Part shown: piece after piece, positions 26,740 to 62,387 of the stretch
How positions within the stretch are numbered: the stretch's first letter is position 1
Layout of the letters: the number at the start of each line of letters is the position of its first letter
Assembly (NCBI GenBank): GCA_041484525.1
Contig: JBGPHT010000015.1
Coordinates: 7,307 to 71,306, forward strand
Source of the DNA: Bryobacteraceae bacterium
GTDB lineage: Bacteria; Acidobacteriota; Terriglobia; Bryobacterales; Bryobacteraceae
DNA length: 64,000 bases
Direction of reading: 5' to 3'
The notes under the pieces: generated by a model
Told to the model about the DNA's origin: nothing
Database searches by the model: none
The model's input: the letters and a program-made list of their open reading frames with translations, nothing else
Translations under genes and position numbers: made by a program

Positions 26740-26811
26740 GCAGCCCAATTCTAACACCCGATTACTATCCTAAGTTCACCGCAAAACTTTGAAATCACGG
26801 GCTGTGCGACA

Positions 26812-37818: not shown

Positions 37819-38864
37819 AGGTCGTGCAGCTCGGGCCCTACCCGCCGCCTCATGGCGGCGTCCAGTCCAACCTGGTAGCTATCCGCGATTACGTCCGCCG
37901 CCAGGGACATGCCTGCGCCGTCATCAACCTCACGCGGCACCGCGGCGAGGAGCGCGACGACGTCTACTACCCGAGCACTCCCCAGGAAGTTGTGCGCCTA
38001 TTGAAGGCGGGCGGCTACGACATCATCCACCTGCACATCGGCGGCAATCTGCCGCTCCGGCTGCTGCTACTGGCTCTGGTCTGCACCCTGATCCCGCGCG
38101 CCCGTACCGTGTTCACGTTTCATTCGGGCGGCTATCCGTCGTCACCCGAAGGCCGGACGGCGCGCCCATTTTCTCTACGCGGATTCGTCTTCCGGCGCTT
38201 CGGCTGTGTCATCGGCGTCAACCCGCAATTGGTCGAGCTGTTCCGCCGGTTCGGTGTGGCGGCGGACCGTGCGCGCCTGATCTACCCACATGCCGTCCCC
38301 ACACTCCCCGAGGTCTCCGCCGAATTGCCCCCGCCCCTCCAGACTTTCTTCGCGGAACACGATCCCGTGCTCGTCACCGTCGGTCTGCTCGAACCCGAGT
38401 ACGACCTGCCGCTGCAGATCGAGACCATGGGCCGCATTCAGGAGCGCCTTCCGCACGCCGGCCTGATCATCGTGGGCGCAGGCAGTCTCGAGGCGGATTT
38501 GCGCGCCCGCATCCAGGCCGTACCCCACGGCCGCGACATTCTCCTATGCGGAGACGTGCCGCATTCGGCCACGCTGCGCACCATCACGCGCGCCGCCGCG
38601 CTCTTGCGAACCACGCTCTACGACGGCGATTCCGTGGCAGTTCGCGAGGCGCTACACCTGGGGACGCCCGTGATCGCCACCGATAACGGCATGCGTCCCG
38701 AAGGCGTCCACCTGATTCCCATCCACAATGCGGACGCCCTGGTGAACGCCGTCGCGCAGATTGCGGCGACCCCGCGCGAGACTCGCACACCGCCCAAAAC
38801 TGCCGACGAGACAAACCTGGAAGAGGTGTGGCGGATCTACACCGGCCTGCTTACGGAACGCTAG
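37815..38864 (+). CDS. Glycosyltransferase (GT-B, GT4-like)
   Basis: MKVVQLGPYPPPHGGVQSNL N-terminus and DSVAVREALHLGTPVIATDNGMRPEGV. It has an ATGA overlap with the upstream oxidoreductase gene. Confidence 0.7.
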   Translation: MKVVQLGPYPPPHGGVQSNLVAIRDYVRRQGHACAVINLTRHRGEERDDVYYPSTPQEVVRLLKAGGYDIIHLHIGGNLPLRLLLLALVCTLIPRARTVFTFHSGGYPSSPEGRTARPFSLRGFVFRRFGCVIGVNPQLVELFRRFGVAADRARLIYPHAVPTLPEVSAELPPPLQTFFAEHDPVLVTVGLLEPEYDLPLQIETMGRIQERLPHAGLIIVGAGSLEADLRARIQAVPHGRDILLCGDVPHSATLRTITRAAALLRTTLYDGDSVAVREALHLGTPVIATDNGMRPEGVHLIPIHNADALVNAVAQIAATPRETRTPPKTADETNLEEVWRIYTGLLTER

Positions 38865-41800
38865 TGACCTGTATCGGACCGCCTCGCAGAATGTTGTTCG
38901 AAGCGTCCCGATAAATGACCCGGTAGTACAAAATACGTTCCGGCAGTGCCGGAATCGCGACGCTGCACGTGGTGCTGCACGGGACACCGGAACCGTTCCA
39001 CGCCCCGCCCTTCGAAGCCATATCGGAGTTCACGAACCAGAACGGGTTGTCGCCGTCGAACCCATTCGCGGGCGGTCCGACAGTGGTCGAGATGCACGCC
39101 TCCCGCCGGCTGGTGCAGTAGAGGTTCAGCGCATCGTACCCGAACACCACCAGGACGTTGTCCACCCCGGTATCGGGCGGCGCCGTCACCGATAGCACCA
39201 TCGGGATGAACTTCGACCGGTCGTATTCATCCGTCGCGGGATAAGGCGGCAGCTTGCCGATCAGGTTGGAACGGAAGAGCATCCACTTGCCATCCGGACT
39301 CGCCTTGACATTGGTCGTTGCCGAACCCCTGTAGCCTTCGAAAATCCTCGTCAGCAGGCGTCCCCGTTCGAAATTCTTCAGCGGCCTGCCGTCGGCATCG
39401 GGCAATCCCCATTGCGCGTAGCCCGCGCCCAGCACGTTGAAATTGGCCACGCAGACATCGCGCCACCCGCCGTAAAACTCGCCCTCTTTGCACCAGGGCA
39501 CCGTCCGGTCGAGCGCCGGAATGTTGACATAGACATTTCCCGGCTGCGAGCCCGCCGTGCACTCTCCCCCGCGCCAGGCGTAGCAGACCCGGTACGCATC
39601 CGAAGCCTGGCCTGTGAGCACCGACTGCGGACCGCTGATGTCCGTCAAAGGCGATCCACCCGAAAACGCCGCCAGGTCGTAATGTTTGGGATCGATCGCG
39701 CCGGTGTACCGGTATTGATACAGGTCTCCCTCGATCGGCACCGCACTCATCGTGCCATTGCTCGCGTTCCCCGTGAACAGGTATGGATGGCCGTCCAGAA
39801 ACCACCGCTGATCCTCAGGCGGCGCGGCTTCCTGCGAATAGGAAGGATGCTTCTCGATGGCGTTGCCATACGGTGCCGACAGTTTTCCGCTGAACAGCGT
39901 CGGCAGCGCGATGCTCGTCTGGTAAGAACTGTCCTGCATCTTCGCCGGGTCGAAAGGCGCCAGCGACACGCCGTAATCCGGGTGCACACGGACGCCGTCG
40001 CGCCCGAACGCATGGTTCACGTACGCCGTCGGGAAGTACGTCGCCGGGTTGGACGCGTCCCCATCCTGTTGATAGAACCAGTGCGCTCCGCCCTGCAGGC
40101 AGTAGGCCGTCAACACGCTCCCGTTGGCATGCTCGCGCGGAAATTGATACGTCTGATCGGGGCCCACGCCGCGCTCCACGATATATTCCGCCGGGCCCTT
40201 CTTCTGCACGATCTGAATCACCTCGCCATCCACCGCCAGGGTGTCGCCGGGCGCGAATGGCTGCAGCCAGTGAAGATTCGACCGTTCCGAAACCGGCTCA
40301 CCCGCCTGCCATGCGCCGGGCGCGGTCCCCCAGGCGGCGTTCCACGCGCTCGCCGTCGTCAGCGTGCTGCAATAATTCTTTCCCGCGTAATTCACGCCGT
40401 TGACCGTCACCGGCGGACACGGATCGCAGTTGCCGACCCCCGCCTTGGTGCACACTTTGAGCGGCCCGTTTTGCGTCACGCGGAACGGATAATCCTTCTC
40501 GTTTTGAAATTCCGGCGTGGCGATTCCTTCGGCGCGGATGCTCTGGTACGTGTGCAGCGTGCACCAGCGCGACGCGGCGCGCGCGAACATCGGATCGGCC
40601 CCGATCGCCTGTTGGGTGTTGCCGAAACGCCCGGCATATCCGTTCCCGATGGGAAGTCCGTTGCCCAGGTCGAGCGCGAACAGCCACGCAAAACTATCCT
40701 GCTGATAATTGCGGCACGACACCACCACGCTATTGCCCTGCACCGACTCGAGCCCGCAATTCGGAAACGAACCGCGATCATAGGCAATGTCCTTCGACGC
40801 CGTGTAGCGGGTGAACTGTGCCTGCAGCGTGTAGTCGTCGTCCGCGCTGGTGCAATTGCGGAGACACGGCGTCAGGACCTGAAATTTGGCCGGGAGTTGC
40901 GGCCACCGCGCCGTTTCGGAGCCGTAGATATTGGCGGCTGGACACGCGGATGCCTTCTCGCCGCACGCCACGTCATTGCCCGTGTACGTCGCCTTCACCA
41001 GCACGCTCGGGCTGCCGGGATATCCCGACTGCGTCGAAAAATACATCACGTTGGCGTCGTTGTCGTCCCACAGAAAATCATTCAACGACGCGCCGTAGAA
41101 TTCCAGCCCGCTCTTGAGAACACCTACCGACTGGATAAACACGTACGCCATCCCCAGATACCGCACCGTCAGGGTTCCGTCGGCTTCCGTCCGCAGCCCG
41201 GCGATCAGACCGTTCCCGGCGTGGCAATGATAGAATCCGTTCCCGTCGGCCTTCTTGGCGCAGACGCGGTTGAATCCGCCCGACCCGTTTCCGAATGTCA
41301 CGTTGACCGCCGTCGCCGCCCGCCACCCGATCCACTCCAGGTTGATCGTGGATTGCGCCGTCGCGCTCTTCTTGCGCACCAGGATGCCGTACCGCGGATT
41401 TCCAGTCACGCCCGTCCCGTAGTAAAAAGGAATGCCGGTCGTGCCGTTGAAGTCCACGGCGAGCGCGCTTTTCAGCGTCGCCTGCGGTGCGTCCGCGGAG
41501 CAATCCAGAGACTTCACCGCGGGATACTGCGCCGTCGCCGACGGGCTGTTGTAAATCGTCAGCGTGTCGTCCGGCCGCACCCGGCGGCAATCCGCCGCAT
41601 TGGTGAAAAACAGCTTCGTGTAATCCGCGCTGGTGTTGTACACATACCCTTTTCCGGTTCGCGAATCGCCCGCCGGCAGACTGTCGAGCGTCAGCAGATC
41701 GCCCGGCGTGGCCGGATTCCGGCAGGGCGCCCCGTCGCCGCACAGCGCGATCGTAGCGTCACCGCCGGTCAGATCCACTTCCCGAATCGGCGCTTCGCAA

Positions 41801-42654
41801 TGCGCGCCGTCTTCATCCACGCCGTACCGCGTGATGCAGACTTCGACCGTCTGCCCGCCGCTCGAGCAATCCGGCCCCGAGCAGTATCCCTTCAACAGGA
41901 TGTTCTGAAACGAGAGCGAGCTCGACGGAAACGTGGAATTGTACGGAAAGGGTGGATTGCGCAGCCACAGCCAGTCGCGCCTGTTGCCGGAATACGAGGC
42001 GTAGGCGCCGTCGGCGGTCAGCGCCGCGCCGGGATTGCTCCAGTTCCCCGACGCATCCTCGGCGGCTGTGAAGGACGCGCCGCTCTCCGGCGTAGATCCA
42101 CCGTATGCCCACCCCAGCGTGTTGACGTTGTAAATCAGCATGCCGGTCTTGGGATCGACGATAGTGGGCTGCAGGAGCGTGTTAGCAGATGGCTGCAGAT
42201 ACTTTCCAGGCGCCGCAAGGTCGGTCTCGAGCGCGTCTATGTGGGTCGAACCAAGCGGAATGTTGGCCGTTCGGAAACTGTCCGTTGCCGTGTCGTTCCC
42301 GCACCTGATCCGGAAGTAGTGTGCGGTGTTGGTCTGGAGCGCACGGCTATACAACAACCCGACCGGCGTCCGCTCCGTGCGGCGTGCGCCGATCACGAAA
42401 ATGCGCTGCTGGTCCTGCGCGATATTCCCCGGACGGTCGTCGCGATTGGAATTCGGAAATAGCGCCGGATCCACGTCGTGCACCAGGGGCTGAAAGGTCG
42501 CCGACTCGCTGACCTCGACGGTGCAAGCACCCGAATCCGGTGCGGTATAAGAGAGAATCGCCTGCGTCGGCGTCTTCCCCATGACCTGGACGTTGCTGAT
42601 GGCGGCAAATGCCATTCCTGCACTGCCAAACAGGACAAGAGCGGCACGTACCAT
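38851..42654 (-). CDS. Giant secreted hypothetical protein B (1267 aa), paralog of 42729..46508
   Basis: Signal peptide MVRAALVLFGSAGMAFAA. An FN3-like opening reads ISNVQVMGKTPTQAILSYTAP. There are many Cys pairs and a PD40-like NVKASPDGKWMLFRSN near the C-terminus. It is colinear with the upstream paralog along its whole length. Confidence 0.8.
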   Translation of the reverse strand: MVRAALVLFGSAGMAFAAISNVQVMGKTPTQAILSYTAPDSGACTVEVSESATFQPLVHDVDPALFPNSNRDDRPGNIAQDQQRIFVIGARRTERTPVGLLYSRALQTNTAHYFRIRCGNDTATDSFRTANIPLGSTHIDALETDLAAPGKYLQPSANTLLQPTIVDPKTGMLIYNVNTLGWAYGGSTPESGASFTAAEDASGNWSNPGAALTADGAYASYSGNRRDWLWLRNPPFPYNSTFPSSSLSFQNILLKGYCSGPDCSSGGQTVEVCITRYGVDEDGAHCEAPIREVDLTGGDATIALCGDGAPCRNPATPGDLLTLDSLPAGDSRTGKGYVYNTSADYTKLFFTNAADCRRVRPDDTLTIYNSPSATAQYPAVKSLDCSADAPQATLKSALAVDFNGTTGIPFYYGTGVTGNPRYGILVRKKSATAQSTINLEWIGWRAATAVNVTFGNGSGGFNRVCAKKADGNGFYHCHAGNGLIAGLRTEADGTLTVRYLGMAYVFIQSVGVLKSGLEFYGASLNDFLWDDNDANVMYFSTQSGYPGSPSVLVKATYTGNDVACGEKASACPAANIYGSETARWPQLPAKFQVLTPCLRNCTSADDDYTLQAQFTRYTASKDIAYDRGSFPNCGLESVQGNSVVVSCRNYQQDSFAWLFALDLGNGLPIGNGYAGRFGNTQQAIGADPMFARAASRWCTLHTYQSIRAEGIATPEFQNEKDYPFRVTQNGPLKVCTKAGVGNCDPCPPVTVNGVNYAGKNYCSTLTTASAWNAAWGTAPGAWQAGEPVSERSNLHWLQPFAPGDTLAVDGEVIQIVQKKGPAEYIVERGVGPDQTYQFPREHANGSVLTAYCLQGGAHWFYQQDGDASNPATYFPTAYVNHAFGRDGVRVHPDYGVSLAPFDPAKMQDSSYQTSIALPTLFSGKLSAPYGNAIEKHPSYSQEAAPPEDQRWFLDGHPYLFTGNASNGTMSAVPIEGDLYQYRYTGAIDPKHYDLAAFSGGSPLTDISGPQSVLTGQASDAYRVCYAWRGGECTAGSQPGNVYVNIPALDRTVPWCKEGEFYGGWRDVCVANFNVLGAGYAQWGLPDADGRPLKNFERGRLLTRIFEGYRGSATTNVKASPDGKWMLFRSNLIGKLPPYPATDEYDRSKFIPMVLSVTAPPDTGVDNVLVVFGYDALNLYCTSRREACISTTVGPPANGFDGDNPFWFVNSDMASKGGAWNGSGVPCSTTCSVAIPALPERILYYRVIYRDASNNILRGGPIQVTSVP

Positions 42655-42728: not shown

Positions 42729-45700
42729 TCACGGCACCACCGTAACCTGCAGCGGCGACGTCGCGATCACGGCCTGCGACGCATTCCGATACGACCAGCG
42801 GTAGAACACTACCTTGCCCGAGATCGCCGGAATCGCAATCGTACAGCCGCTGCTGCAAGGCATCCCGGTCACACCCGTATCCCCGCCCACCTCCGTCGGC
42901 CACACGAACGGGTTAACCTCGTCGATGGCGCTCTTGGTCGCGACGCACTTCTCGGTTCGCACGGTGCAATATAGGGTTGTGGTGTATCCGAACTCCACCA
43001 CCGCGTTATTCACACCCGCGCTCGCCGGCGGTTTCAGGTTCACCACTACCGGGCTGAAACTCGTTCGCACCACGCTGTTGGCCGCGGGATACGGCGGCAG
43101 CTTCAGAACGATATTGCTACGCAGCATGATCCACTGGCCGTCAGGCGTTGGTTTCGTATTGGAAGTCGAGGAACCTCGAAACGGTTCGAAAAGGCGCGTC
43201 AATACTCTCCCGCCCAGAAAATTCCTCACCGTCAGTCCACCCGTATGCGGCAGCGCCCATTGTGCATAGGATCCCCCCAGCACGTTGAAATTCACCGCGC
43301 AGATGTCGCGCCATCCGGAGAAGAACTCGCCCTCCTTGCAATAGTTGACAGTCAGGTCGAGCACCGGAATATTCATGTAAACGTCACCCGCGGTCGAGCC
43401 CGAAGTACACTCGTTATTCACCAGAGCCCGGCATGCCTTGTAAGCATCCGCGCTGGTACCGGTGACGACGGAGCCCGGGCCGCTGACTTCGCGCAGCACA
43501 TTCGCGCCCGCAAACGCGGCCAAGTCGTACTGTTTGGCGTCGATCGTCCCGGCGTACCGGTATCGATAGAGGTCGCCCGAGATTTTCACCGCGCTAAATT
43601 GTGTCGAACCGGAATTCCCGGCAAACAGATAAGGGTGCCCGTCGACGAACCAGCCCTGATCGTACGCCGGCGCATCTTCCTGGCCATACGAGGGATGCTT
43701 TTCGATCGTGTTGCCCGACGCGAATGACTGCTTTTGCGCATACGTGTCCGGCATGACGATCAGCGAGAAGTAAGACAGATCCTGCATCTGGGACGGAGTG
43801 AAAGGCGACAGCGAGACGGCGTAATCCGGATGCACACGAACGCCGTCCCGCCCGAACGCATGGTTGACGAAGTCCGTTGGGAAATACGTGCTGGTCGTAC
43901 CCGTGCCGTCCGGATCGAGTTCATAGAACCAATGGGCGCCGCTGAATTCGCAGCCCGTGGGCCAGACGCTGCCGTTCCCTTGCGCCCGCGGAAATTGATA
44001 GGACTGGTCGAATCCTACGCCGCGCTCCACGATGTACTGCGAAGGTCCGTTTTTCTGAATTACCCGAATCACCTCGCCCGCCGACGTGAGTTCGTCGCCA
44101 ACTCCCAGAGGTTGCATCCAGTGGAGGTTGGCAAGCGTCGATACCGGCTCACCCGTTGCAAACCCGGCCGGCACCGCCCCCCAGGCCCCGTTCCAGGAAG
44201 TGGTGGTGTTCAGCGTTCCGCAGAAGTTCTTCCCGGTATAGTCGGTGCCATTCACCACCACCGAAGGGCACAGATCGCAGTTGGCGCCTCCCAGCTTGGA
44301 GCACGCGGGCAGCGAGCCGGTTTGGGTCACTTTGAAAGGCTCGATTTTCTCGATCTGAAACTCCGGTGTTGAGATTCCCTCCTTGTGAACATTCTGGTAC
44401 GTGTGCAGCGTGCACCATTTGGACAGGCCTCGCGCAAATATCGGGTTGGCGGCGAACACCTGCTGCGTATTCCCGAAGCGGCCCACAAATCCGGCGCCGA
44501 TCGGCAAACCATTCCCCAGGTCGAGTGCGAATACCCAGGCAAAACTGTCCTGCTGCCCCTGCCGGCAGGCAGCCAGCAGCGTGCTCCCAGCCACCGCCTC
44601 CAAGGCGCAATTGGGAAACGAGCCCTGGATGTAAACGGTGCTCTTCGATGCGGTGTACCGCGCAAACTGCTTTTCGAGCGAGTAGTCGTCGGCCGGGTTG
44701 AGGCAGCCATTCAGGCACGGCGTCAGTATCTGGAAAGTCGCCGGCAACTGCGGCCACCGCTGCGTTTCGCTGCCGTATGGATCGGGCGGCGGACAGGCCG
44801 ACCCCGCCGTGCCGCACACCAGGTCGTTTCCCGTGTACGTGGCTTTCACTAACTGGGTTCCGGAATTATCGGCGTAGCCCCTGGACGCGAAGTACATGAC
44901 ATTCGGATTCGTGTCGTCCCATAGAAAATCGTTCGCCGCCGGGCCGTAAGTCTGAAAACCGGATTGCAGCCCATAGCCTTGCCCGAACAGCCACGCCATG
45001 CCGAGAAACCTCACCGTGATGTTCCCATCGGGCTCGGTGCGGATGCCGGTGATCATGTTGTTCCCAGCGTGACAGTGGTAAAAGCCGTTGGCGTCCGTTC
45101 GCTTCGTGCAAACCCGGTTGAAGCCGCCTGACCCGTTGGCGAACGTCGTATTCAGCGCGCTCGCCCCCACCCATTTGGCCGAATTGATATAGATCGTCGA
45201 GCTTGCCGTGGCGCTGCTTTTTCGGACCAGTATTCCGTACCGTGGATTTGCCATTCCGGTGAAATAGTAGAACGGAATCCCCGTCGTGCCGTTGTAGTCC
45301 ATGATTACCGAAGAGGACATCACCGCTTGTGGTGGATTGGCGCCGCAGTTCAACGATGAGAGTGTGACGCTGAACGTCACCGCCGACGGGCTCACATACA
45401 TCAAGACGGTTTCGCCCGGCCACAGCCGGCGGCAGTCGTTTAGGCTGCCAAAAAATATCTTCGTGTAATCGGCCGACGTGTTGTACACATAGCCATCACC
45501 CACCACGGAATCGAATTTCGGAAGCCGGTCGAACAGCATGATGTCGCCCGGTTTGGATGGCTGCTGGCACAGTGCGCCATCCCCGCAGATCCGGATGGGC
45601 GACATCACGTTTGCCAGCGCCACGGTCCTTATTGGATTCTCGCAATGCGCGCCTTTTTCGTCGATCCCCAGGCGCGTGATGCAAACGTCCACCAACTCCC

Positions 45701-46508
45701 CACCCGTGCCACAGGCCGTACCGGCACACATTCCTTCGAGAATGATGTTCTGATACGAGAGTTCGTTCTGCGTGAAGGTCGAGTTGTCGGGATAGAAATT
45801 CAGCCGGAACCACAGCCATTCCTGCGCGTTGCCCGGATAGGCCGCCCAATTCGTATCCGTGGCCAGTGCGAACGAGGGATTCGTCCAGTGGCCGGAGGGG
45901 TCCTGCACATCGCTGAAGGCCACCCCCGCCGCGCCGCTGCCCGACCCGTACGACCAACCGGACGTGTCGATATTCTTCGCCAGCACACCCGTCTTCGGGT
46001 CCACGATTTCCGGGAACAGAGATTCGTTGTTGGATGGCCAGAGATACGCCCCGGGATTGTTCGGATCCGACTCGAGCCCGTCCATGTGAGTGCTGCCCAG
46101 CGGTGGATTCAGCGTCCGGAATTTGCCGGTTGCGACGTCCGCCCCGCACGTTACGCGGAAATAGTAATCCGAATCCGCCTGTAGCGCGCGCGAATACTTC
46201 GCCCCCGATCCCGCCCGTTCCACACGCGGCTTTCCGGCTACAAACGTCCGCGTGCGGCCCAGCGTCAGCGACCCGGACCGGCTGTCCTGATCTTCTCCCG
46301 GAAACAACGCCGGGTCCACGTCGATCGCGAGCGGCGTGTAGCCCGGTTGCTTGCTCGCCTCGAACTTGCAGGCCTGACTCGTCGATGCCACGTAAGCAAT
46401 CACCGCCTGCGTCGGCGTCGTGCCCAGCACCCGGACATTGGTGATCTGCGCAGCCGCGATCCCCGGACCCAATACCGCCAGAACCGTCACTTCGCGTAGT
46501 CTTACCAT
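42729..46508 (-). CDS. Giant secreted hypothetical protein A (1259 aa), paralog of 38851..42654
   Basis: The start MVRLREVTVLAVLGPGIAAAQ (complement of 46506-46508) overlaps the stop of the upstream gene (ATGGTAA). The same motif order as protein B is present: ITNVRVLGTTPTQAVIAY..., WCTLHTYQ, HPDY[GA]VSL, EKHPSY, TPDGQWIMLRSN. Confidence 0.8.
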   Translation of the reverse strand: MVRLREVTVLAVLGPGIAAAQITNVRVLGTTPTQAVIAYVASTSQACKFEASKQPGYTPLAIDVDPALFPGEDQDSRSGSLTLGRTRTFVAGKPRVERAGSGAKYSRALQADSDYYFRVTCGADVATGKFRTLNPPLGSTHMDGLESDPNNPGAYLWPSNNESLFPEIVDPKTGVLAKNIDTSGWSYGSGSGAAGVAFSDVQDPSGHWTNPSFALATDTNWAAYPGNAQEWLWFRLNFYPDNSTFTQNELSYQNIILEGMCAGTACGTGGELVDVCITRLGIDEKGAHCENPIRTVALANVMSPIRICGDGALCQQPSKPGDIMLFDRLPKFDSVVGDGYVYNTSADYTKIFFGSLNDCRRLWPGETVLMYVSPSAVTFSVTLSSLNCGANPPQAVMSSSVIMDYNGTTGIPFYYFTGMANPRYGILVRKSSATASSTIYINSAKWVGASALNTTFANGSGGFNRVCTKRTDANGFYHCHAGNNMITGIRTEPDGNITVRFLGMAWLFGQGYGLQSGFQTYGPAANDFLWDDTNPNVMYFASRGYADNSGTQLVKATYTGNDLVCGTAGSACPPPDPYGSETQRWPQLPATFQILTPCLNGCLNPADDYSLEKQFARYTASKSTVYIQGSFPNCALEAVAGSTLLAACRQGQQDSFAWVFALDLGNGLPIGAGFVGRFGNTQQVFAANPIFARGLSKWCTLHTYQNVHKEGISTPEFQIEKIEPFKVTQTGSLPACSKLGGANCDLCPSVVVNGTDYTGKNFCGTLNTTTSWNGAWGAVPAGFATGEPVSTLANLHWMQPLGVGDELTSAGEVIRVIQKNGPSQYIVERGVGFDQSYQFPRAQGNGSVWPTGCEFSGAHWFYELDPDGTGTTSTYFPTDFVNHAFGRDGVRVHPDYAVSLSPFTPSQMQDLSYFSLIVMPDTYAQKQSFASGNTIEKHPSYGQEDAPAYDQGWFVDGHPYLFAGNSGSTQFSAVKISGDLYRYRYAGTIDAKQYDLAAFAGANVLREVSGPGSVVTGTSADAYKACRALVNNECTSGSTAGDVYMNIPVLDLTVNYCKEGEFFSGWRDICAVNFNVLGGSYAQWALPHTGGLTVRNFLGGRVLTRLFEPFRGSSTSNTKPTPDGQWIMLRSNIVLKLPPYPAANSVVRTSFSPVVVNLKPPASAGVNNAVVEFGYTTTLYCTVRTEKCVATKSAIDEVNPFVWPTEVGGDTGVTGMPCSSGCTIAIPAISGKVVFYRWSYRNASQAVIATSPLQVTVVP

Positions 46509-49162
46509 GATGCGATCGCCACCCTTCTCCAGCCATTCGCCTGGAAACAGATATAGAGAAAACTTCCGTCCGCCGCCCACGATCCGGAATCGCAGGTGGT
46601 GACGGCAGTTGCCGGGACCCCCACCCGCAGTCCCACCAGGCTGGTATCGAGCGCCAGATTCGTCGTCGCCCCAAGGTCCGCCGCGATCAATCCCACGCCC
46701 GGCGCGATGGCCTTCCCCGCACTGTACGCCGCCCGCTGATCCAGACCGCCGCTCACGTCAAACCTCACCGTCAGCCCAACCGGCCATGTGGCTGTCCACG
46801 TATATAGCGGAATCGAATCCAGCGGAAATGCAGGCACCGCCGCTTGCACCGTACAGTTCCCGCACGACAGCGTGTCTCCCGCCGGGAAGTTGTGCCCCGC
46901 GGTCAAAGCGCCCGACCGTGCGATGTAGATGAACACCGTGCCCGCGCCCAGAGTGGCGCCGCCCACCGTCAACGTCGAACTCTGCGTGAATGAGAAAGTC
47001 GTGCTTCCGAGCCGCACGTTGCACGGCGTGGTAACGCTGCACCCCACTCCGATCTGCAGCGTCACTGACGTCGTTCGCACCACTCCGAAATCGCCGAGTT
47101 GCGCACCCATGGTTGCTGCGCCTCCGCCCCCCGAGCCGGTCTGCGGCTCCCACTGGCTGCTCCCGGCGTTCCACCCCAACACCTGGCCGCTTCCCGGCGC
47201 CGCCGCCGATACCGCCCGGTTCTGCAGCGCCGTCACCGTATTGGTGCTCAGATCGCCCGTCACATCTCCCGCCGCGGTATGCGAATGGCTGGACGGCGAT
47301 TTCGAATTGATCTGTGTCTGAATGTCGCTGCTCACGTTCTGCAGAAACGCGAAGTGCGTGCTATCCACTGCGCCCGAGCCGATCTTCGTGGCATCAATCC
47401 CGGAGGGCAATTGACTCAAGGTCGCCGTCCCCGAAATATCGCTGAACGCATAGTCGGCAACCTGTTTCAGGATGGTTCCTGTGCGCCCGAAGACACTCAG
47501 CACCGAGCCGCCCCCGCCTCCCCCTCCACCGCCCGAGCCGCCGGAGCCGTTCACTACGCAGTGGCCGGTCTGGGCCGTGGTGAAATTGACCGTCACGTCG
47601 AACGTCGTGGGGTGCACCGTCACCGTGTCGGGCTCGATCTGTTTCGCCGGCGTGGCCGCGTCGTAGCACGCCACCACCAGATTCGCCGTGGCGAAACCGT
47701 GCGCCGTGGCGGCCATCACGATGCTGGTCTGGCTGACGAAATCGAGTCCGTAATTCTTCCCCGTGCCGGTGGGGACCCAGGCCGTGCCGTTGTAGAATTT
47801 CAAGCTGTTGCCATCCGCCGAATCCGCCGCCACGTCGCCGCTTTGGGGCGCACTGGGCAGCACGGCCGGCGCCACGCGCAAACCAGGGTTGGTGGCGCTG
47901 GCCGTGAACGTCTGCCGCGCGCCCGCCGAGAAGATCGTCGCCGCGGTCTTATCCACTGCATTGGTCACTTGCGAGGCCGAGTAGTCGCTCGCCTGTGCCG
48001 TCACCGTTCCCGTCCGCCCGAAAACGCTGCCCACCGAGGCCGGGGCCGCCGCCGTGATCACCCAGGAGGTGCCGTCGAACACTTTCAACTTATTCGAGTC
48101 GGCGGAATCGATCGCCAGGTCGCCGCTGGCCGGAGAACTGGGCAGCGTGGACGGCACGATCCGCAGTCCCGGCAGCGTACTCCCCGCCGTGAACGTCTGC
48201 CGCGCGCCCGCCGAGAACGTATTGGCCGCGGTCTTGTCCGCCGCGTTCGTCACCTGCGCCGCCAGGTAGTCGCCCGACTGCGCCGTCACGGTTCCGGTCC
48301 GCCCGAAAATGCTAGTGATGTTTCCGCCCCCCGACGTCCCCGCTGTTGCAATCCATGAGGTCCCGTCGAAATACTTCAGCTTGTTCACATCGCCCGCATC
48401 TATCGCCAGGTCGCCGCTCTGGGGCGCCGTCGGCAGTACCGCCGGGATCACGCGCAGGCCCGGTTGGCTGGCGCTTGGAGTGAAGGTCTGTTTCGCCCCC
48501 GACGTGTACGCGGTGGCGGCAGTTTTATCCACCGCGTTCGTGATCTGCGAGACCAGATAGTCGCCCGCTTGCGCCGTCACCGCGCCGGCTCGCCCGAAAA
48601 TGCTGGTGATGAGGTCGGGCGGCGCGACCGTCGTCACCCAGGCCGTTCCGTTGTAGAATTTCAGCTTGTTGCTGTCGCTCGCATCGATCGCCAAGTCCCC
48701 GGTCTGGGGCGCGCTCGGCAGCGTGGACGGCGCTACGCGCAGCCCGGTCAAAGTGGCGCCCGGCGTGAACGTCTGCTTCGCCCCGGCGGAGTAGCTATTG
48801 GCCGCGGTCTTATCCACCGCATTGGTGATTTGCGCTGCCGTGAAGTCGCCCGTTTGCGACGCCACCGTCCCAACGCGGCCGAAGACCGTCAGCACCGCCG
48901 CCGAGCTTTGTAGGGTCCACGTATCCGTCGTAGTGCACAGATACAGATTCTTCCCGGCCGGGGCGCTAGTGCTGAAGAACGCCGCTCCTATCGAGCACGT
49001 GGATGGAAGCGTAACGCCGGTCTTAAAGGGTTTGGTCGAGGGTGCGGCCGAGAAATCGACGGTCTTGCCTTGCGTCGACAGGCCAATTCGCGTCTGGCAA
49101 TTGACCCTGTACAGCCCCGCACCGATGACCGCCAACGCGATCGGAAAACGCCATGTCTGCAT
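46502..49162 (-). CDS. Secreted repeat protein with phage-tail-fibre-like repeats
   Basis: Start MQTWRFPIALAVIGAGLYRVNCQ (complement of 49160-49162). It has four tandem ~95-aa repeats beginning [VI]FGR[VAT]G[TA]V[TA][AS]Q, a fifth partial copy after a poly-Gly linker (GGSGGGGGGGGGS), and Cys-bracketed end modules. Confidence 0.8.
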   Translation of the reverse strand: MQTWRFPIALAVIGAGLYRVNCQTRIGLSTQGKTVDFSAAPSTKPFKTGVTLPSTCSIGAAFFSTSAPAGKNLYLCTTTDTWTLQSSAAVLTVFGRVGTVASQTGDFTAAQITNAVDKTAANSYSAGAKQTFTPGATLTGLRVAPSTLPSAPQTGDLAIDASDSNKLKFYNGTAWVTTVAPPDLITSIFGRAGAVTAQAGDYLVSQITNAVDKTAATAYTSGAKQTFTPSASQPGLRVIPAVLPTAPQSGDLAIDAGDVNKLKYFDGTSWIATAGTSGGGNITSIFGRTGTVTAQSGDYLAAQVTNAADKTAANTFSAGARQTFTAGSTLPGLRIVPSTLPSSPASGDLAIDSADSNKLKVFDGTSWVITAAAPASVGSVFGRTGTVTAQASDYSASQVTNAVDKTAATIFSAGARQTFTASATNPGLRVAPAVLPSAPQSGDVAADSADGNSLKFYNGTAWVPTGTGKNYGLDFVSQTSIVMAATAHGFATANLVVACYDAATPAKQIEPDTVTVHPTTFDVTVNFTTAQTGHCVVNGSGGSGGGGGGGGGSVLSVFGRTGTILKQVADYAFSDISGTATLSQLPSGIDATKIGSGAVDSTHFAFLQNVSSDIQTQINSKSPSSHSHTAAGDVTGDLSTNTVTALQNRAVSAAAPGSGQVLGWNAGSSQWEPQTGSGGGGAATMGAQLGDFGVVRTTSVTLQIGVGCSVTTPCNVRLGSTTFSFTQSSTLTVGGATLGAGTVFIYIARSGALTAGHNFPAGDTLSCGNCTVQAAVPAFPLDSIPLYTWTATWPVGLTVRFDVSGGLDQRAAYSAGKAIAPGVGLIAADLGATTNLALDTSLVGLRVGVPATAVTTCDSGSWAADGSFLYICFQANGWRRVAIASW
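47765..48886 (-). repeat. Four in-frame tandem coding repeats (periods 95, 97 and 95 aa, about 285-291 bp) inside the tail-fibre-like gene
   Basis: Repeat starts are at residues 113, 208, 305 and 400 of the track ORF. The consensus is FGRtGtVtAQsGDY..aQvTNAvDKTAA..fSAGArQTFT....pGLRv.P..LPsaPqSGDLAID..D.NkLK.f.GTsWv. Confidence 0.9.
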
Positions 49163-57731: not shown

Positions 57732-58877
57732 CTACCCGACGAATTCCTCCACTGCAGCGATCACCGCGTTCCTCTCCGCCTCACTCATCTCGGGAAACAC
57801 CGGCAGGCTGATCGCCTCCCGCGCCAGCCGCTCCGCCACCGGGAGCGCCGGAAAAGGTCCGAGCCCGCGGAAGCACTGCTGTTCATGCAGCGGCAGCGGA
57901 TAGTACACCTCCGAAGCGATACCGCGCTCCGCCAAAAACTTCCGCAGGGCATCCCGTGGCGATTCCCTTCCCTTCCATCCGTCACCCGCTCGAATCCGCA
58001 GCGTGTATTGGTGGACGATGTGGGTCCGGTCCGCGTGCGTCACCGGCGTCACCACCTCCACCGCCCCGTTGCCCTTCAGTCCGCCGAAAGCGCGATTGTA
58101 CTCGCAAGCGTGCCGCTGCCGTTTCGCCGTGTACTCCGGCAGATGCGGCAGCTTCACCCCGAGCAGCGCCGCCTGTAGCGCGTCCAGCCGGAAATTCCCG
58201 CCCACCGTCTCGTGGAAATACCGCGCATGCGCGCCATGGCTGCGGAGCAACCTCGCTTTATCCGCCAGCGCCGGGTCGTTGGTCACCAGCAGGCCCGCAT
58301 CCCCCAGCGCACCCAGATTCTTCGTCGGGAAAAAACTGATGGTGGCGAAATCACCGAATGAGCCCACCGGCCGCCCCCGATATTGGGCGCCAAACGCCTG
58401 GGCAGCATCTTCGATCGTCGCGATCCCGCGCCGCCTGGCCAGCTCGAGAATGGGGTCCAGGTCGGCCGCCTGCCCGTACAGGTGCACCGGAACAATCGCC
58501 TTCGTGCGCCCGCTGATTAGCCGTTCAACACCTTCTGGATCGATGTTGAAACACTCCGCGCAGGAGTCCGCAAACACCGGCTTCGCCCCTAACCTGGCCA
58601 CACATCCGGCCGTAGCGAAAAAGGTGAATGAGGGACAGATGACCTCGTCGCCCGGGCCGATCCCCAATGCCATGAGGGCGCACAAGACTGCATCCGTGCC
58701 CGACGACATCCCGATGCCGAAGCGCGCGCCCGCCACCGCCGCGGCCGCCGATTCGAACTCCTCCACTTCCCTGCCCAGGATGAACTGGCCGGACTCGAGG
58801 ACGCGCCGGAACGCTGCCGTCAATTCAGCTTCGAGCGGTAGATTCTCCCGCCGCACATCCAGCAAAGGAACCTTCAT
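57732..58877 (-). CDS. DegT/DnrJ/EryC1/StrS-family PLP aminotransferase
   Basis: MKVPLLDVRRENLPLEAEL..., FILGREVEEFE and FFPTKNLGALGDAG (with the PLP Lys). The start is at 58877, with an ATGA overlap onto the upstream gene stop. Confidence 0.9.
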   Translation of the reverse strand: MKVPLLDVRRENLPLEAELTAAFRRVLESGQFILGREVEEFESAAAAVAGARFGIGMSSGTDAVLCALMALGIGPGDEVICPSFTFFATAGCVARLGAKPVFADSCAECFNIDPEGVERLISGRTKAIVPVHLYGQAADLDPILELARRRGIATIEDAAQAFGAQYRGRPVGSFGDFATISFFPTKNLGALGDAGLLVTNDPALADKARLLRSHGAHARYFHETVGGNFRLDALQAALLGVKLPHLPEYTAKRQRHACEYNRAFGGLKGNGAVEVVTPVTHADRTHIVHQYTLRIRAGDGWKGRESPRDALRKFLAERGIASEVYYPLPLHEQQCFRGLGPFPALPVAERLAREAISLPVFPEMSEAERNAVIAAVEEFVG

Positions 58878-60055
58878 GGCGTCTCCAGGGATTGCAGCAC
58901 CTGCCGCGCCTCCGCGCGCTCCGCCTCCGGCCGCGCCGGATCGCCCGCCACCTGTTTCCAATAGTCGTGGGTCTCTTGCCAGCGGCGCCGCTCCTCTTCC
59001 ACCTGCTTGCGCAGCAGTTCGCGCGCCGAAAGGTGTCCGCCATTTTCGAAGTGCCGCGGCACCGCCGTCAGCACAAACCCGACCGGATTTTGAATGTGGC
59101 GCGCCCACTGCAGCTTGACCCCGACGAAATAAGCGATCTCTTCGATGGTCGAATCCCCCGCCCTTCTGCGGCATGCTTCGAGCAGTTGGAGCAGCGCGCC
59201 GTCGTCGACAAAACCTAGCTGCCTTTCGAGAAGCTTTCGCAACGCCGCCACTTCCGACGATGACGCTGTTCTGCCTTCAGGATTATGCTCTATCTTTTGT
59301 GTGGTCTGCCTGACTACTGTGGTCTGGTTCGCAACGGCGCCAGTTGGTGTAGCCCCAGCCGCCTCAGTGGTCGCGGCTGAAGTGTCATCAGTGGTCTGGT
59401 CCGAAGTGACTACTGTAGTCAGGTTCAGCCGTGGATCGGGCAACGGATGCGCGTACAGAAAACCGGGTCCGATCTTGACCGCGTGCAAGCGTCCCTTCCG
59501 CGCCTGACGGTCGAGCACTCCCCGATAGCTGAAAACCCGGTAGACCGTGGAACTGCGGGTATAGATATCGGCCGGCCGTTCGATCATGATAAAGTCCTTC
59601 TCGATCAGGCGGTCGATGATGCGCTGGATGGTCTTCTTCGAAAGACGGGTGCGCTTCATCAGGTAGTCGTATCCAGCCTGCACAATCCGCGCGTCACCGC
59701 CAGTCTCGTCCCGCTCCGCTCCCCGGGTCGCCCAGAGCGTGTCGTACACCGATTCCTCTGCCGTATTCAAGACATCCTGCGCCAGCCGGATCCGCTTCAC
59801 CCGCGACCCCGGTACCAGTTCGCCGCCTTCCGTGATCCAGATGGAAGGCGCAGGGCCGGACCTGACTACAGTAGCCGGGTTACTCACGACCACTGTGGGC
59901 GTCTCTACTACTGTTGCCACTTCAAACTCGTCTACAGTGGCCGGCTCGGCTACTGTGGTCATGTCAGATTCGACCACAGTATTCTGAAATGACTCGACTA
60001 CAGTGGTCACTTCCGCCAACACATTGTTACTTAACAGGATATTACAGGATATCAA
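58874..60055 (-). CDS. Winged-helix (Rep/regulator-like) protein with T-T-V-V low-complexity arrays
   Basis: The central segment YDYLMKRTRLSKKTIQRIIDRLIEKDFIMIERP...VYRVF is a wHTH-like module. It is flanked by TTVV-type repeats. The C-terminal part has IEEIAYFVGVKLQWARHIQNPVGFVLTAVP. An alternative start is at 59962. Confidence 0.55.
   Translation of the reverse strand: MISCNILLSNNVLAEVTTVVESFQNTVVESDMTTVAEPATVDEFEVATVVETPTVVVSNPATVVRSGPAPSIWITEGGELVPGSRVKRIRLAQDVLNTAEESVYDTLWATRGAERDETGGDARIVQAGYDYLMKRTRLSKKTIQRIIDRLIEKDFIMIERPADIYTRSSTVYRVFSYRGVLDRQARKGRLHAVKIGPGFLYAHPLPDPRLNLTTVVTSDQTTDDTSAATTEAAGATPTGAVANQTTVVRQTTQKIEHNPEGRTASSSEVAALRKLLERQLGFVDDGALLQLLEACRRRAGDSTIEEIAYFVGVKLQWARHIQNPVGFVLTAVPRHFENGGHLSARELLRKQVEEERRRWQETHDYWKQVAGDPARPEAERAEARQVLQSLETP
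59298..59425. repeat. Cluster of CTACTGT[GA]GT / CAGTGGTC motif copies (2 full plus 3 partial)
   Basis: gactactgtggtc (59312-), cctcagtggtc, catcagtggtc, gactactgtagtc (59408-) and gtgtggtctg (59299-). Confidence 0.6.
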
Positions 60056-60145
60056 CAGCGCTCGTCAGGCTTCCAGGGCGTCCATCTAGCTTCCTGGCTA
60101 CTGTGGGCAAGTCAGACATGTCCACAGTAGGCTCTTCCGGATCTT
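59870..60145. repeat. Cluster of 9 copies of C[CT]AC[AT]GT[GA]G in both orientations, spanning the 5' end and upstream region of the wHTH gene (iteron/centromere-like)
   Basis: In order: ctacagtagc, ccactgtggg, ctactgttgc, ctacagtggc, ctactgtggt, ccacagtatt, ctacagtggt, ctactgtggg, ccacagtagg. A tandem ACAGGATAT x2 lies at 60043-60061 around the annotated start. Confidence 0.65.
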
Positions 60146-60258
60146 CCGGCGCCAGCGGCGGGGGAGCGTTCACCAGATGGGAACCGACACCACTACCCAC
60201 GGCTGGCGTTAAGATCAGATCCTCCAGCTCGCTAGGGTCGAACGCCGGTTGCGTCTTA

Positions 60259-60699
60259 CTAGACCGCGATACTCTCGCCATGCTGCGCTTCGATTTGCGC
60301 CGTCGGTGGCGCCGTCTTCACGCCTAACAAGTTCAATAATGAGGTTGTCGCCGCGTCGTAATCCTCGAGCGCCTTCGCCTTCGGATCCACGTCCACGATC
60401 ATCTTGTGCAGCCGCGCCGATTTGCCGATCGCCTGGTCCGTTCGAATGGCCTCCACCACCGGAATCTTGTAGGTGTCGCTCAACTGGCTGATCATCTTCA
60501 TTACTGCATCCGTCAAACCATACCGCCGATTCACGATTGCTGGCAGCAGGGCAACCGGCCGGATCGGAGTCCGGACGCTGTCGCCGATCGTCTGCGCCGA
60601 AAAGATGGTCGCGCCGGCGCCTGAAACGCTTAGGGTGTCCATCGAGATCGGGATCAGCACGTTCTGGCAAAACACCATCGAACAAGCCTGGAGCAGGGA
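60259..60699 (-). pseudogene. parA: ParA/Soj-family partition ATPase, C-terminal ~145 aa only (N-terminal Walker A half missing)
   Basis: [24 protein letters not shown]...LLPAIVNRRYGLTDAVMKMISQ...IPVVEAIRTDQAIGKSARLHKMIVDVDPKAKALEDY matches the distal half of ParA. No KGGxGKT motif is present. The upstream part of the track ORF is antisense to the permease fragment. Confidence 0.6.
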
Positions 60700-60711
60700 A
60701 ATGGAGGGCGC

Positions 60712-62387
60712 ACTCCGATGCTGGGGGTCGGCGCCGTGATCCTGGCCGCGGTCAGCCTGGTCCTGCTGATCGCCTGCGCCAATTTGGCGAATCTCCTGCT
60801 GGCCCGCGCGGTAGTGAGGCGCAAGGAAATTGCCGTTCGCCTGGCGGTAGGCGCCTCGCGCCTGCGCCTGATCCGCCAACTTCGGGCCGGCAGGAACTCC
60901 GGGTTCTCGGCCACGTAGGCGCCTCGCGCCTGCGCCTGATCCGCCAACTGCTGACCGAGAGTATGCTGCTGGCGTTGACCGGCGGCGCTCTGGGCCTGGT
61001 GGCCGCCTGGGGAACGCTGCGCAGCCTGTATCCGCTACTGCTGGCGAGGCTCCCGCAGGAAGTGCAATCGCTGCCCCTCAACCTCAATCTGGATGTCCGA
61101 ATTCTGTTCTACTCGCTGCTCCTGTCCTTTGCGACCGGCGCCGCATTCGGCCTGGTTCCGGCGCTTCAGACCTCGAACCTCGATCTCAATTCGTCGCTCA
61201 AAGGAACCGGCGCGTCGTTCGCCGGACGCTCGGGCGGTTGGCTGCGCGGTTCGCTCATCGCCGCCCAGATCGCGGTCTGCCTGGTCCTGTTGATCGCCGC
61301 CGGACTGCTGGTGCGGGGCCTTCAGGCCGCACAGACGATCGACCCGGGATTCGAAATGAAAGACATCGCGGCGGCGAGTTTCGATCTGAGACTCGAAGGC
61401 TACGACCAGCCACGAGCCGCCGCGTTCAATCGCCAACTCGCCGACCGGCTGGCAACGCACGCCGGTATCGATGAGGTGGGTTTCGTGGACTCCGTGCCCT
61501 TGAGCGGCTCGCGGCGCGGAACCATGGGCACGGTGGCCGGCCGGGACGAGAAATTCCAAATCACCGACGCCCGCGTTTCCGCCAACTACTTTCAGCTTCT
61601 CGGAATTCCGGTTGTGCGCGGCCGCGCGTTCGAGCCGGGCGAGACCACCGGCGACGGACGCAGCATCATCCTCAGCCAATCCGCCGCGCGGCGTTTGTGG
61701 CCGGGCGAAGATCCCATTGGAAAGCGCCTGCTGTTCGACGACGGGAAAACTGCAACCGAAGTCGTGGGCGTGGTGAAGGACATCCGCGCTTCCAGCCTTT
61801 CGGCCGTCGATCCTATCTTCCTCTACCATCCGGCGGGACCGAAGTCGCAGGTGGGCCTTTCCATTCTGGTGCGCGGCAAAGCCGGATACGCCGCCATCGC
61901 CAAATCCATCCGCGATGAGACGCGCGCGCTCGATCCGAACGTTCTGGTGCAGTCCCACCGCCTGGAAGACAATCTCGACCTGTGGCAACTCCCCTCGCGG
62001 ATTCTGTCGATGCTGGCGCTGGCTCTGGGGATCGCCGGGTTGATCCTGGCATCGATCGGCATCTACGGCGTGATGGCCTACGCCGTGACCCAGCGGACGA
62101 AGGAGATCGGGATTCGGATGACGATGGGCGCGCAGCGGCGCGACGTGGTGCGGCTCATTCTGGGGCAGGCGATGCGTCCGGTCGCCATCGGGATCGCGCT
62201 CGGCCTGGCGGGCAGCGCCGCCGTCTCCGGCATCCTTTCGAGTCTGCTCTACGGCTTGAACCGGCTCGACCCGGCGGTCTTCGGAGGCGTGTCACTTTTC
62301 CTTGCAGCCATCGCGCTGCTGGCCGGCTATGTCCCCGCGCAACGAGCGACACGCGTCGATCCGATGACGGCCTTGCGCCACGACTAG
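60712..62387 (+). pseudogene. ADOP/FtsX-type permease, 5'-truncated and frameshifted by a 68-bp duplication
   Basis: [54 protein letters not shown] is in one frame (ORF 60718..60918). It continues after the duplication as [28 protein letters not shown]... in another frame, to stop 62387. The N-terminal MacB-like domain is absent. Confidence 0.7.
60847..60949 (+). repeat. 35-bp perfect direct repeat (60847-60881 and 60915-60949) separated by 33 bp
   Basis: GTAGGCGCCTCGCGCCTGCGCCTGATCCGCCAACT occurs twice. The unit offset of 68 bp is not a multiple of 3 and breaks the permease frame. Confidence 0.9.

Follow-up and report, generated by a model that had tools for sequence, protein, structure and literature searches.

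The stretch of DNA analyzed here comprises 64,000 nucleotides of contig JBGPHT010000015.1 from a Bryobacteraceae bacterium of the phylum Acidobacteriota, and we refer to this whole stretch as the window. Its minus strand carries, at 58874..60281, an initiator-like gene that is present here as a pseudogene, preceded by a remnant of parA and followed by a gene for a DegT/DnrJ-type aminotransferase. The gene is laid out, in order, as a conserved N-terminal peptide, a first array of short palindromic sites (R1), a winged helix-turn-helix (wHTH) domain, a second array (R2) joined to an AT-rich tract, and a helical C-terminal domain. An earlier reading made from the nucleotide sequence alone (the sequence-only reading) had noticed the succession of parA, repeats, and a gene for a DNA-binding protein and compared it with the rep/par loci of plasmids. 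The order and the Rep-like character of the gene stand, with the qualification that the window gene is frameshifted and its parA truncated.

The frameshift is caused by a 10-bp tandem duplication (ATATCCTGTA followed by ATATCCTGTT on the coding strand) at 60033..60052 of the minus strand, which splits the gene into open reading frames (ORFs) 60042-60281 and 58874-60055. Removing one copy in silico yields an uninterrupted frame of 465 codons whose product matches the family from end to end. The DNA around the duplication, which falls between two sites of R1, is locally AT-rich (37% GC). The sequence-only reading took ORF 60042-60281 for a separate small ORF and had the main gene start only after the sites at 60096 and 60120, which is where it erred. 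The product of this ORF is the N-terminus of the homologs, M-x-[KR]-x-SRS-x-x-x-QPEFDPSELEDLIFTPAVGxGVGSHL, and we reject it as a gene of its own, since it matches the family N-terminus and its frame is broken by the duplication. The conserved peptide itself, MARVSRSSKTQPAFDPSELEDLILTPAVGSGVGSHL, has 36 amino acids in near-invariant alignment columns and is encoded at 60174..60281 on the minus strand. The first 23 bases of the gene overlap the end of parA, as in the homologs.

Palindromic sites form two arrays within the gene

Exact matches to CYACWGTRG number 10 in the window, and 9 of these fall within 0.8 kb (59314-60130). Dinucleotide-preserving shuffles of the whole 64-kb window (n = 100) gave a mean of 0.64 matches and a maximum of 5, and none of the 100 reached 10. 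The motif is thus enriched beyond composition, and the observation made in the sequence-only reading is confirmed. The sole match outside the locus, at 15840-15848 (CCACAGTGG), lies within an AsnB-like gene, a single occurrence that fits chance.

Aligning the copies reveals a longer site, a 13-bp palindrome with the consensus GNCYACWGTRGNC (of the GACTACAGTAGTC type), which we refer to as the TV-type site. The window contains 13 such sites, close to the 14 or so copies first reported, and they fall into the two clusters already recognized on either side of the wHTH-coding segment. R1 (59864..60132) holds nine, at 60120, 60096, 59996, 59972 (one mismatch), 59948, 59930, 59906 (two mismatches), 59888, and 59864. 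R2 (59312..59420) holds four, at 59408, 59384, 59360, and 59312, of which 59384 and 59360 are degenerate (two mismatches each). The remaining nine copies are perfect. Adjacent sites in the window are spaced by 24 or 18 bp.

On the coding (minus) strand, every site reads NCY-ACW-GTR-GNN and is translated as [S/T/A/P]-T-V-[V/A/D/G], in agreement with the TTVV-type repeat originally read in the sense frame. Similar strings had been pointed out on the opposite strand. They exist there as mirror images of palindromic codons and carry no weight as evidence for genes. We accordingly rejected the plus-strand ORFs 59145..59507 and 59739..59987 as genes, as they are the unavoidable mirror image of palindromic coding repeats.

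Selection acts on the DNA site

Whether the DNA site or the encoded peptide is primary was a question left open by the sequence-only reading, and comparative data decide it for the DNA. Our codon statistics cover 582 T-V dipeptides in 43 non-identical homologous genes. The threonine of T-V is encoded by ACA or ACT in 526 of 582 cases (90%), against 42% of the other threonines in the same genes, and the valine by GTG or GTA in 501 of 582 (86%), against 43% elsewhere. The bias reaches beyond the dipeptide: in 92% of cases C or T closes the four-fold degenerate NCN codon that precedes T-V; 91% of sites have the flanking G of the 13-mer and 86% its flanking C, both at third codon positions; and a weaker palindromic extension lengthens the site to about 21 bp. 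As a control, the T-V of the folded "TVYR" strand is written with ordinary codons (ACW in 13/32, GTR in 9/32). The pattern named in the sequence-only reading as speaking against DNA sites, homologs that keep TTVV peptides with other codons, did not appear. Fisher p-values for the codon bias range from 1e-77 to 1e-98; the sequences are related, so these values overstate independence, and to that extent they weigh against our interpretation. The lineage-specific site words described below are a result independent of the Fisher p-values.

An alternative is that selection acts on the RNA or the peptide, through mRNA pairing or a function of the TTVV peptide, and that the DNA palindrome is incidental. 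Self-complementary copies could indeed pair in mRNA, and 384 of the 386 coding copies share one frame. The shared frame, however, is accounted for by coding constraints, because the other frames of CYACWGTRG give TAG/TGG or strings of Cys, Tyr, and His. Fixed synonymous positions rule out pure selection on the peptide, further copies lie out of frame or in non-coding DNA upstream of a promoter-like element, and other lineages carry the unrelated peptides PMG, PIG, and SPAV, again fixed at the nucleotide level. We consider this alternative scarcely credible. Its simplest form, a peptide-driven repeat, is rejected by the synonymous-site statistics, the "TVYR" control, and the non-coding and out-of-frame copies. 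Synonymous fixation, non-coding copies upstream, and lineage-specific words together argue that the DNA sites are primary, and the sequence comparison decisively favors selection at the nucleotide level, with the TTVV-type peptide as its by-product.

Both arrays are predicted to encode disordered linkers

In AlphaFold (AF2) models, a winged helix and a C-terminal domain of five helices are predicted with confidence, each at a predicted local distance difference test (pLDDT) score of about 90. Both are encoded on the minus strand of the window, the winged-helix DNA-binding domain by 59426..59830, including an invariant K-T-I-Q-R recognition-helix stretch, and the C-terminal domain by 58877..59263, including the conserved stretch NPVGFxLTAVPRHFENGGH. 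The arrays map onto the segments whose pLDDT is below 50, with residues 137-186 of the window protein corresponding to R2 and residues 25-100 and 240-289 of the full-length homolog P0009 to R1 and R2, respectively. In these models, both arrays are predicted to encode disordered linkers. A short helix is predicted within the N-terminal peptide, at residues 17-23 of P0009.

The number of R1 copies ranges among homologs from 0 to 15 or more. The R2 lattice is identical in the window and in all homologs, with sites at 0, 24, 48, and 96 bp; overlapping half-sites lie at 72 bp. Immediately past R2 lie a GACCAC half-site and then a conserved tract of about 36-39 bp whose GC content in the 43 homologs is 25-34%, compared with a gene mean of 56%. 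Within the tract, 96% of isoleucine codons are ATA and 73% of leucine codons are TTA, against 12% and 6% elsewhere, and the use of these rare codons indicates that nucleotide-level maintenance extends to the AT-rich tract. In the window, a GACCAC half-site (coding strand) and the AT-rich tract after it (AAAAGATAGAGCATAATCC...) occupy 59262..59309, and the tract has 44% GC compared with 60% for the gene. We regard it as a candidate DNA-unwinding element beside R2.

A large family with an invariant operon order

We found 243 close homologs of 300-690 amino acids, all in soil and peat metagenomes and in metagenome-assembled genomes of Acidobacteriaceae/Terriglobia. The best existing label among them is "predicted transcriptional regulator," from the Joint Genome Institute (JGI). 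A profile search recovered 1536 representative clusters (made at 50% identity) at E values up to 1e-3 and 387 at E values up to 1e-30. No curated Pfam or NCBIfam family matched above threshold (30 members were scanned with Pfam).

Wherever upstream DNA exists, the operon order is invariant: a gene for an HTH_17/MerR-excisionase-like protein, parA (265 amino acids), and the wHTH gene, the latter two overlapping by 23-35 bp in every such locus. Taken side by side, the HTH_17 protein and ParA look like a RepA-type (type Ia) ParA that has been split in two, as represented by RepA of repABC (TIGR03453). ParA is 75-95% identical across loci with the TV-type site, and both it and the HTH_17 protein are far more conserved than the wHTH protein. 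In annotated TV-type loci, an ORF of about 170-220 codons precedes the HTH_17 gene, and genes for a tyrosine integrase and toxin-antitoxin systems lie a few kb farther upstream. A tRNA/att-site search near the integrases found no tRNAs.

Each homologous gene contains 3-17 copies of the motif, and there are almost none elsewhere in the 20-kb loci. The exceptions are one to three sites about 1.1 kb upstream, which are intergenic or fall in the last part of the preceding ORF in a frame other than that of TV. These upstream sites stand 40-110 bp before a conserved TGTCATAAGTTT element, itself located ahead of the HTH_17 start. This element (G[TA]CATA[AG]G[TA]T) lies about 1.0 kb upstream of the wHTH gene, for example at 5833-5844 of homologous locus L004 and likewise in L001, L027, and L015. 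It occurs once or twice on one strand, with two copies about 40-90 bp apart, in all loci for which upstream DNA exists; elsewhere it is nearly absent. The corresponding region is missing from the window locus. The PMG lineage described below has the variant TGTCCATAGTTTT. Judging from sequence, this promoter-like element may be a promoter or an operator of another factor; the L004 operon region was scanned for sigma-70 promoters and gave no hit.

Different lineages carry different site words at the same two positions

Diverged subfamilies recovered by the profile search have other peptide repeats at the same two positions of the gene, and these repeats are again fixed at the nucleotide level. 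The PMG lineage uses the word ACCCATGGGT, in which each repeat reads A-CCC-ATG-GGT and forms a perfect palindrome. The two genes examined contain 9 and 5 copies, the proline of the repeats is always CCC while other proline codons are mixed, and this lineage too has an upstream pair of sites, 21 bp apart. The [P/H]IG lineage uses ACCTATAGGT, read as A-C[CA]T-ATA-GGT (AC[CA]TATAGGT), and its repeats always encode isoleucine by the rare ATA, with ATC in the folded parts. The SPAV lineage uses TCC-CCY-GCT-GTW (TCCCCYGCTGT), of which 8 copies lie on one strand as true direct repeats, with a degenerate inverted copy upstream. The sites of the TV, PMG, and PIG lineages have no defined orientation because they are palindromes. 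CYACWGTRG is absent from the PMG, PIG, and SPAV genes examined, and the synteny of the HTH_17/MerR gene, parA, and the family gene is retained in the diverged lineages. In the manner of plasmid iterons, which are sites of 13-22 bp repeated about every two helical turns and peculiar to one initiator lineage, the sites are most often spaced by 24 bp (170 of the spacings counted), and the four lineages have four different motifs.

Within the TV lineage the putative recognition helix, K-T-I-Q-R, does not vary; the other lineages have different sequences there. Cognate pairs of protein and site are marked by just such a combination of conserved position and lineage-specific word. This co-variation of motif and protein lineage is the strongest support, of an indirect kind, for the proposal that the protein would bind sites in its own gene.

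The same co-variation bears on a further possibility, that the sites are bound by the HTH_17/MerR-excisionase-like protein or by the integrase in the control of recombination and excision. The HTH_17 gene is always the first of the operon, and an integrase is usually encoded within a few kb. The motif, however, lies in the wHTH gene and changes in step with the wHTH lineage, while the HTH_17 protein and ParA are much more conserved than the wHTH protein, and the arm sites of an integrase would be expected beside att sites rather than within a gene at a distance of 3-7 kb. In view of the link between motif and wHTH lineage, we disfavor this explanation and rate it as very improbable.

A candidate replication initiator with intragenic iterons

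The best explanation of these observations, to which we assign a probability of roughly 0.58, is that the gene encodes a replication initiator of an uncharacterized family whose iterons and origin lie within its own coding sequence. The protein would be of the replication-initiator or "replisome-organizer" type, built of an N-terminal peptide, a linker, a winged helix, a second linker, and a helical C-terminal domain. Its gene would form part of an hth17-parA-rep maintenance module on integrative, and in part conjugative, elements of the Terriglobia (Acidobacteriota). Its cognate sites would be the GNCYACWGTRGNC palindromes, arranged on a 24-bp lattice in the two linker-coding parts, with a further pair ahead of the operon promoter, and winged-helix dimers would bind them. 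The roughly 4-5 fixed lattice positions of R2, together with the AT-rich tract, would constitute the origin at which the DNA opens, and the C-terminal domain would recruit a DnaB-type helicase to it. The copy-variable R1 and the upstream pair may serve in autoregulation, copy control, or ParA-dependent segregation.

We rate this reading best because the sites and the AT-rich tract lie in a linker-coding part of the gene, with a helicase gene adjacent in the long-form loci, a layout that matches those of lambda and SPP1 discussed below. Repeated sites next to an AT-rich tract were found inside the gene in the 43 homologs and at 59262-59420 in the window. In 13 long-form loci (proteins of about 680 amino acids), a gene for a DnaB-family helicase starts 37-44 bp past the stop codon (L001 11157-12506, L027 11187-12536, L064 11681-13027, and ten more). 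Conjugation genes lie near two long-form loci, encoding a type IV secretion system (T4SS) coupling protein and a TrwC relaxase in L064 and a VirB4/TrbE-like ATPase in L027, and one locus, L068, contains PRTRC genes. Such genes are characteristic of an integrative conjugative element. The family gene of L064 is itself split at 9990-10010 into ORFs of 133 and 548 amino acids by a frameshift inside R1 (...ACATCATGACATGACT...), which may reflect repeat instability or a long-read assembly error.

The proteins themselves point in the same direction. Among PHROG families, "replication initiation protein" matched with E values down to 1.6e-7 and "O-like" weakly, at 0.01, and HTH_36 and DnaD_N gave below-threshold but consistent matches in 26-29 of 30 members. 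Foldseek matches to viral models (BFVD) span both domains and include replisome organizers, "Replication initiator A," and DnaD-like proteins at E values of 3e-6 to 1e-4. The AF2 models and the Foldseek alignments agree on a two-domain architecture of winged helix, flexible linker, and helical C-terminal domain. The initial suggestion of a Rep-like winged-helix gene with embedded iteron- or centromere-like sites thus gains support from weak matches of hidden Markov models (HMMs) to phage replication initiators, from the fold, from the dnaB neighbor, and from the T4SS and relaxase genes.

Several observations weigh against an initiator. The family is absent from PLSDB plasmids and GenBank phages (both by tblastn) and from IMG/VR (scan), on which basis we rejected a phage or a known plasmid as its origin. 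No contig has the terminal overlap that would be a sign of a circular molecule, and many copies lie on long contigs among housekeeping and glycan genes, so these copies are integrated or chromosomal. Short-form loci, including that of the window, where DegT follows, have no adjacent dnaB. DnaA boxes are not enriched in the operon regions (0.17 per kb, compared with 0.13 per kb in whole loci). Every match to a curated family in Pfam and NCBIfam, the lambda-O/replisome-organizer families included, is below threshold, the PHROG matches are weak, and a PDB sequence search with the family profile gave no match. The PDB fold matches are generic wHTH proteins at E values of 0.02 or weaker and include both a RepA_N Rep and AspA, so they fail to discriminate between a Rep and a centromere-binding protein. 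The sites could be bound by the HTH_17 protein. Finally, the gene occupies the parB slot of a par operon, and no other ParB candidate was seen.

The last point leads to the possibility that the protein is a ParB analog that serves the adjoining ParA and that the palindrome arrays are a partition site. The conserved basic N-terminal peptide would then stimulate the ParA ATPase, and such a role may coexist with that of an initiator. The gene always follows parA with the short overlap described above, the position of a parB, and arrays of short palindromes combined with a pair of sites at the operon promoter resemble centromere-operator layouts. The N-terminal peptide, with its basic and acidic residues, is nearly invariant over 36 amino acids, the centromere-binding wHTH protein AspA is among the PDB fold matches, and the HTH_17 protein and ParA look like the split type Ia ParA of repABC. 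The fold, by contrast, is a wHTH with a helical domain, without any ParB/Srx, ribbon-helix-helix, or ParB-HTH signature in Pfam or NCBIfam, and the two-domain fold and HMM matches favor replication initiators. Moreover, the long forms are followed immediately by dnaB, and the AT-rich tract with its rare codons has no obvious centromere role. We therefore regard a centromere-binding protein as an unlikely explanation that nevertheless deserves serious consideration.

Also unlikely is a combination of the two, in which one protein is both the initiator and the centromere-binding protein of a minimal parA + rep cassette for replication and segregation, and the site words drift together with the recognition helix. 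If so, each lineage would write its own site into the disordered linkers, and TTVV, PMG, PIG, and SPAV would be pure by-products of translation. Joint drift of the recognition helix and the in-gene array would let specificity, and hence incompatibility, evolve. The cassettes beside glycan and flagellar clusters would then mobilize or maintain surface-polysaccharide islands in the Terriglobia.

The window copy is a decayed remnant

The upstream end of the locus is truncated. The parA remnant (60259..60711, minus strand) encodes only residues 122-265 of the 265-amino-acid ParA, with 77% identity to ParA of L004, and lacks the Walker-A half. The HTH_17 gene, the promoter, and the operator sites that would be expected upstream are absent. 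The truncated parA instead adjoins a fragment of an FtsX/MacB-type permease gene without its N-terminal part (60700-60960, plus strand). This fragment contains a frame-breaking 43-nt direct repeat (60847-60889 and 60915-60957, spaced by 68 bp). Two small frame-breaking duplications within 1 kb suggest, from the sequence, either that the DNA has decayed locally about the junction of a deletion or that the assembly is faulty here. Given the frameshift, the truncated parA, and the broken permease neighbor, we read the window copy as a decayed remnant. With its promoter and operator also lost, it is probably inactivated, a relic without a present function.

The module adjoins glycan genes

The sequence-only reading correctly noted that the gene overlaps the downstream DegT/DnrJ-type aminotransferase gene (57732-58877; Pfam DegT, 1.4e-114) by an ATGA stop/start at 58874..58877 on the minus strand. 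This 4-bp overlap was seen twice, with different glycan genes (DegT in the window and another gene in L004). At least 30 of the 58 kb downstream of the window gene consist of glycan-biosynthesis genes, which encode DegT, a Bac_transf sugar transferase, glycosyltransferases of families 2 and 4, Wzy, an epimerase, a heparinase-like protein, and two AsnB paralogs; a NadE gene lies within the same stretch. Short and intermediate forms elsewhere and the PMG lineage also adjoin glycan or flagellar genes. The hth17-parA-rep module stands beside polysaccharide or flagellar clusters, often near nadE, in the window (1-58800), in L002, L004, L010, L014, L015, L066, and L067, and in the P0299 contig. These clusters are either cargo of the element or a preferred neighborhood for its integration.

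This setting recalls a simpler role for the protein, that of a pure transcription factor that regulates itself and the adjoining glycan or flagellar genes, with its sites acting as operators or roadblocks that tune read-through. The JGI family name, the recurrence of such genes downstream, sometimes with the 4-bp overlap, and the site pairs at the operon promoter would all fit. Up to 17 or more sites inside its own gene, however, are unexpected for an ordinary regulator, as are a ParA partner, a dnaB neighbor, conjugation genes, and initiator-like folds, and the AT-rich tract is left unexplained. We judge a pure transcription factor improbable.

Other features of the downstream stretch are listed for completeness. 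The AsnB-like paralogs at 15768-17654 (minus strand) and 18944-20872 (plus strand) are divergently oriented and flank, within the glycan cluster, a radical-SAM/SPASM gene at 17685-18749; L002 and the P0299 contig likewise have an AsnB-like gene downstream of their module. Inside the glycan region, two adjacent very large ORFs on the minus strand, 38851-42654 and 42729-46580 (1267 and 1283 amino acids), have no Pfam match at E values up to 1e-5, and neither does a 584-amino-acid ORF at 25003-26757.

Implications

The family offers what appears, from its codon usage, to be a clean natural case of dual coding, in which a protein-binding DNA array dictates the amino acids of two linkers. With about 1,500 representative clusters, it probably supplies replication and maintenance functions to integrative or conjugative elements in the Acidobacteriota, a phylum that is dominant in soil and about whose mobile elements and genetic tools little is known. 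If vectors for these bacteria were built on an active member, it could be their first replicon or partition cassette to be chosen rationally. There is also a caution for annotation: TTVV-like low-complexity repeats and the ORFs antisense to them are footprints of DNA sites and should not be taken for protein motifs or genes.

Comparison with known systems

Origins and iterons inside initiator genes are textbook knowledge from lambda, SPP1, RepA_N plasmids, and repC, so the principle of an intragenic origin is already known. In phage lambda, ori-lambda lies within gene O and consists of a 38-bp AT-rich tract adjoining four iterons of 18 bp that are separated by short spacers (PMC3349717). The family described here shares the placement of the origin (here a candidate, with 4-5 positions at 24 bp and a tract of about 36-39 bp) in the part of the initiator gene that encodes the inter-domain linker. 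It also shares an N-terminal DNA-binding domain and a C-terminal domain, which in lambda recruits the helicase. It differs in lacking O-family sequence membership, in having a second, copy-variable array on the other side of the DNA-binding domain, and in its association with a ParA partner and an integrase on an element that is not a phage. The peptide repeat is also far more conspicuous here, with up to about 17 copies.

A second phage parallel is SPP1, whose gp38 binds direct repeats in its own gene (oriL), beside an AT-rich unwinding element, and is followed by the loader gp39 and the DnaB-type helicase gp40 (PMC6316719). Comparable features here are the dnaB gene just downstream, at 37-44 bp in the long forms, and the Foldseek matches to replisome organizers. 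Unlike in SPP1, we identified no helicase-loader gene, the short forms have no dnaB, the sites are palindromic in most lineages, and the context is that of an integrative or conjugative element.

Among plasmids, repABC replicons carry oriV inside repC, and silent mutations showed that an AT-rich coding region of the gene is essential (PMC3155836). The present loci likewise have a ParA-type ATPase gene followed by the gene of an initiator with its (candidate) origin inside the coding sequence, and their HTH_17 protein and ParA look like a split RepA. They contain no repB or parB and belong to another host phylum, and repC is without iterons whereas the family described here is saturated with them. 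The match to RP-C (PF03428) is negligible (3 of 30 members, best E value of 0.039).

Initiators of the RepA_N type (pSK41, pTZ2162, and PLE RepA) combine a wHTH domain that is DnaD_N-like with a lineage-specific C-terminal domain and semi-palindromic iterons (PMC7145576). The wHTH (DnaD_N-like) domain is common to both families, and PDB entries 4pql and 5kbj are among the weak fold matches here (E values of about 0.04-0.14). RepA_N (PF06970) is absent from the Pfam matches of the 30 members even at E values up to 0.1. Weaver et al. reportedly placed the RepA_N origin repeats, in 2009, in the central part of repA; here, two arrays flank the DNA-binding domain, in contrast to this one central array.

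A parallel in genomic setting is the ParA-DnaB-ParB maintenance module of ICEHin1056/ICEclc-type islands, integrative conjugative islands that have parA and dnaB at one of their ends (PMC3739013). The long-form loci similarly combine parA, the wHTH gene, dnaB, and T4SS or relaxase genes. Those islands, by contrast, have a canonical parB, and no wHTH gene with internal repeats has been described in them. We found no description of the present family in the literature. What is new, therefore, is a large unnamed family of the Acidobacteriota in which two arrays flank the DNA-binding domain, the sites reach copy numbers so high that they surface as conspicuous peptide repeats, and the DNA word, and with it the peptide, switches from one lineage to another.

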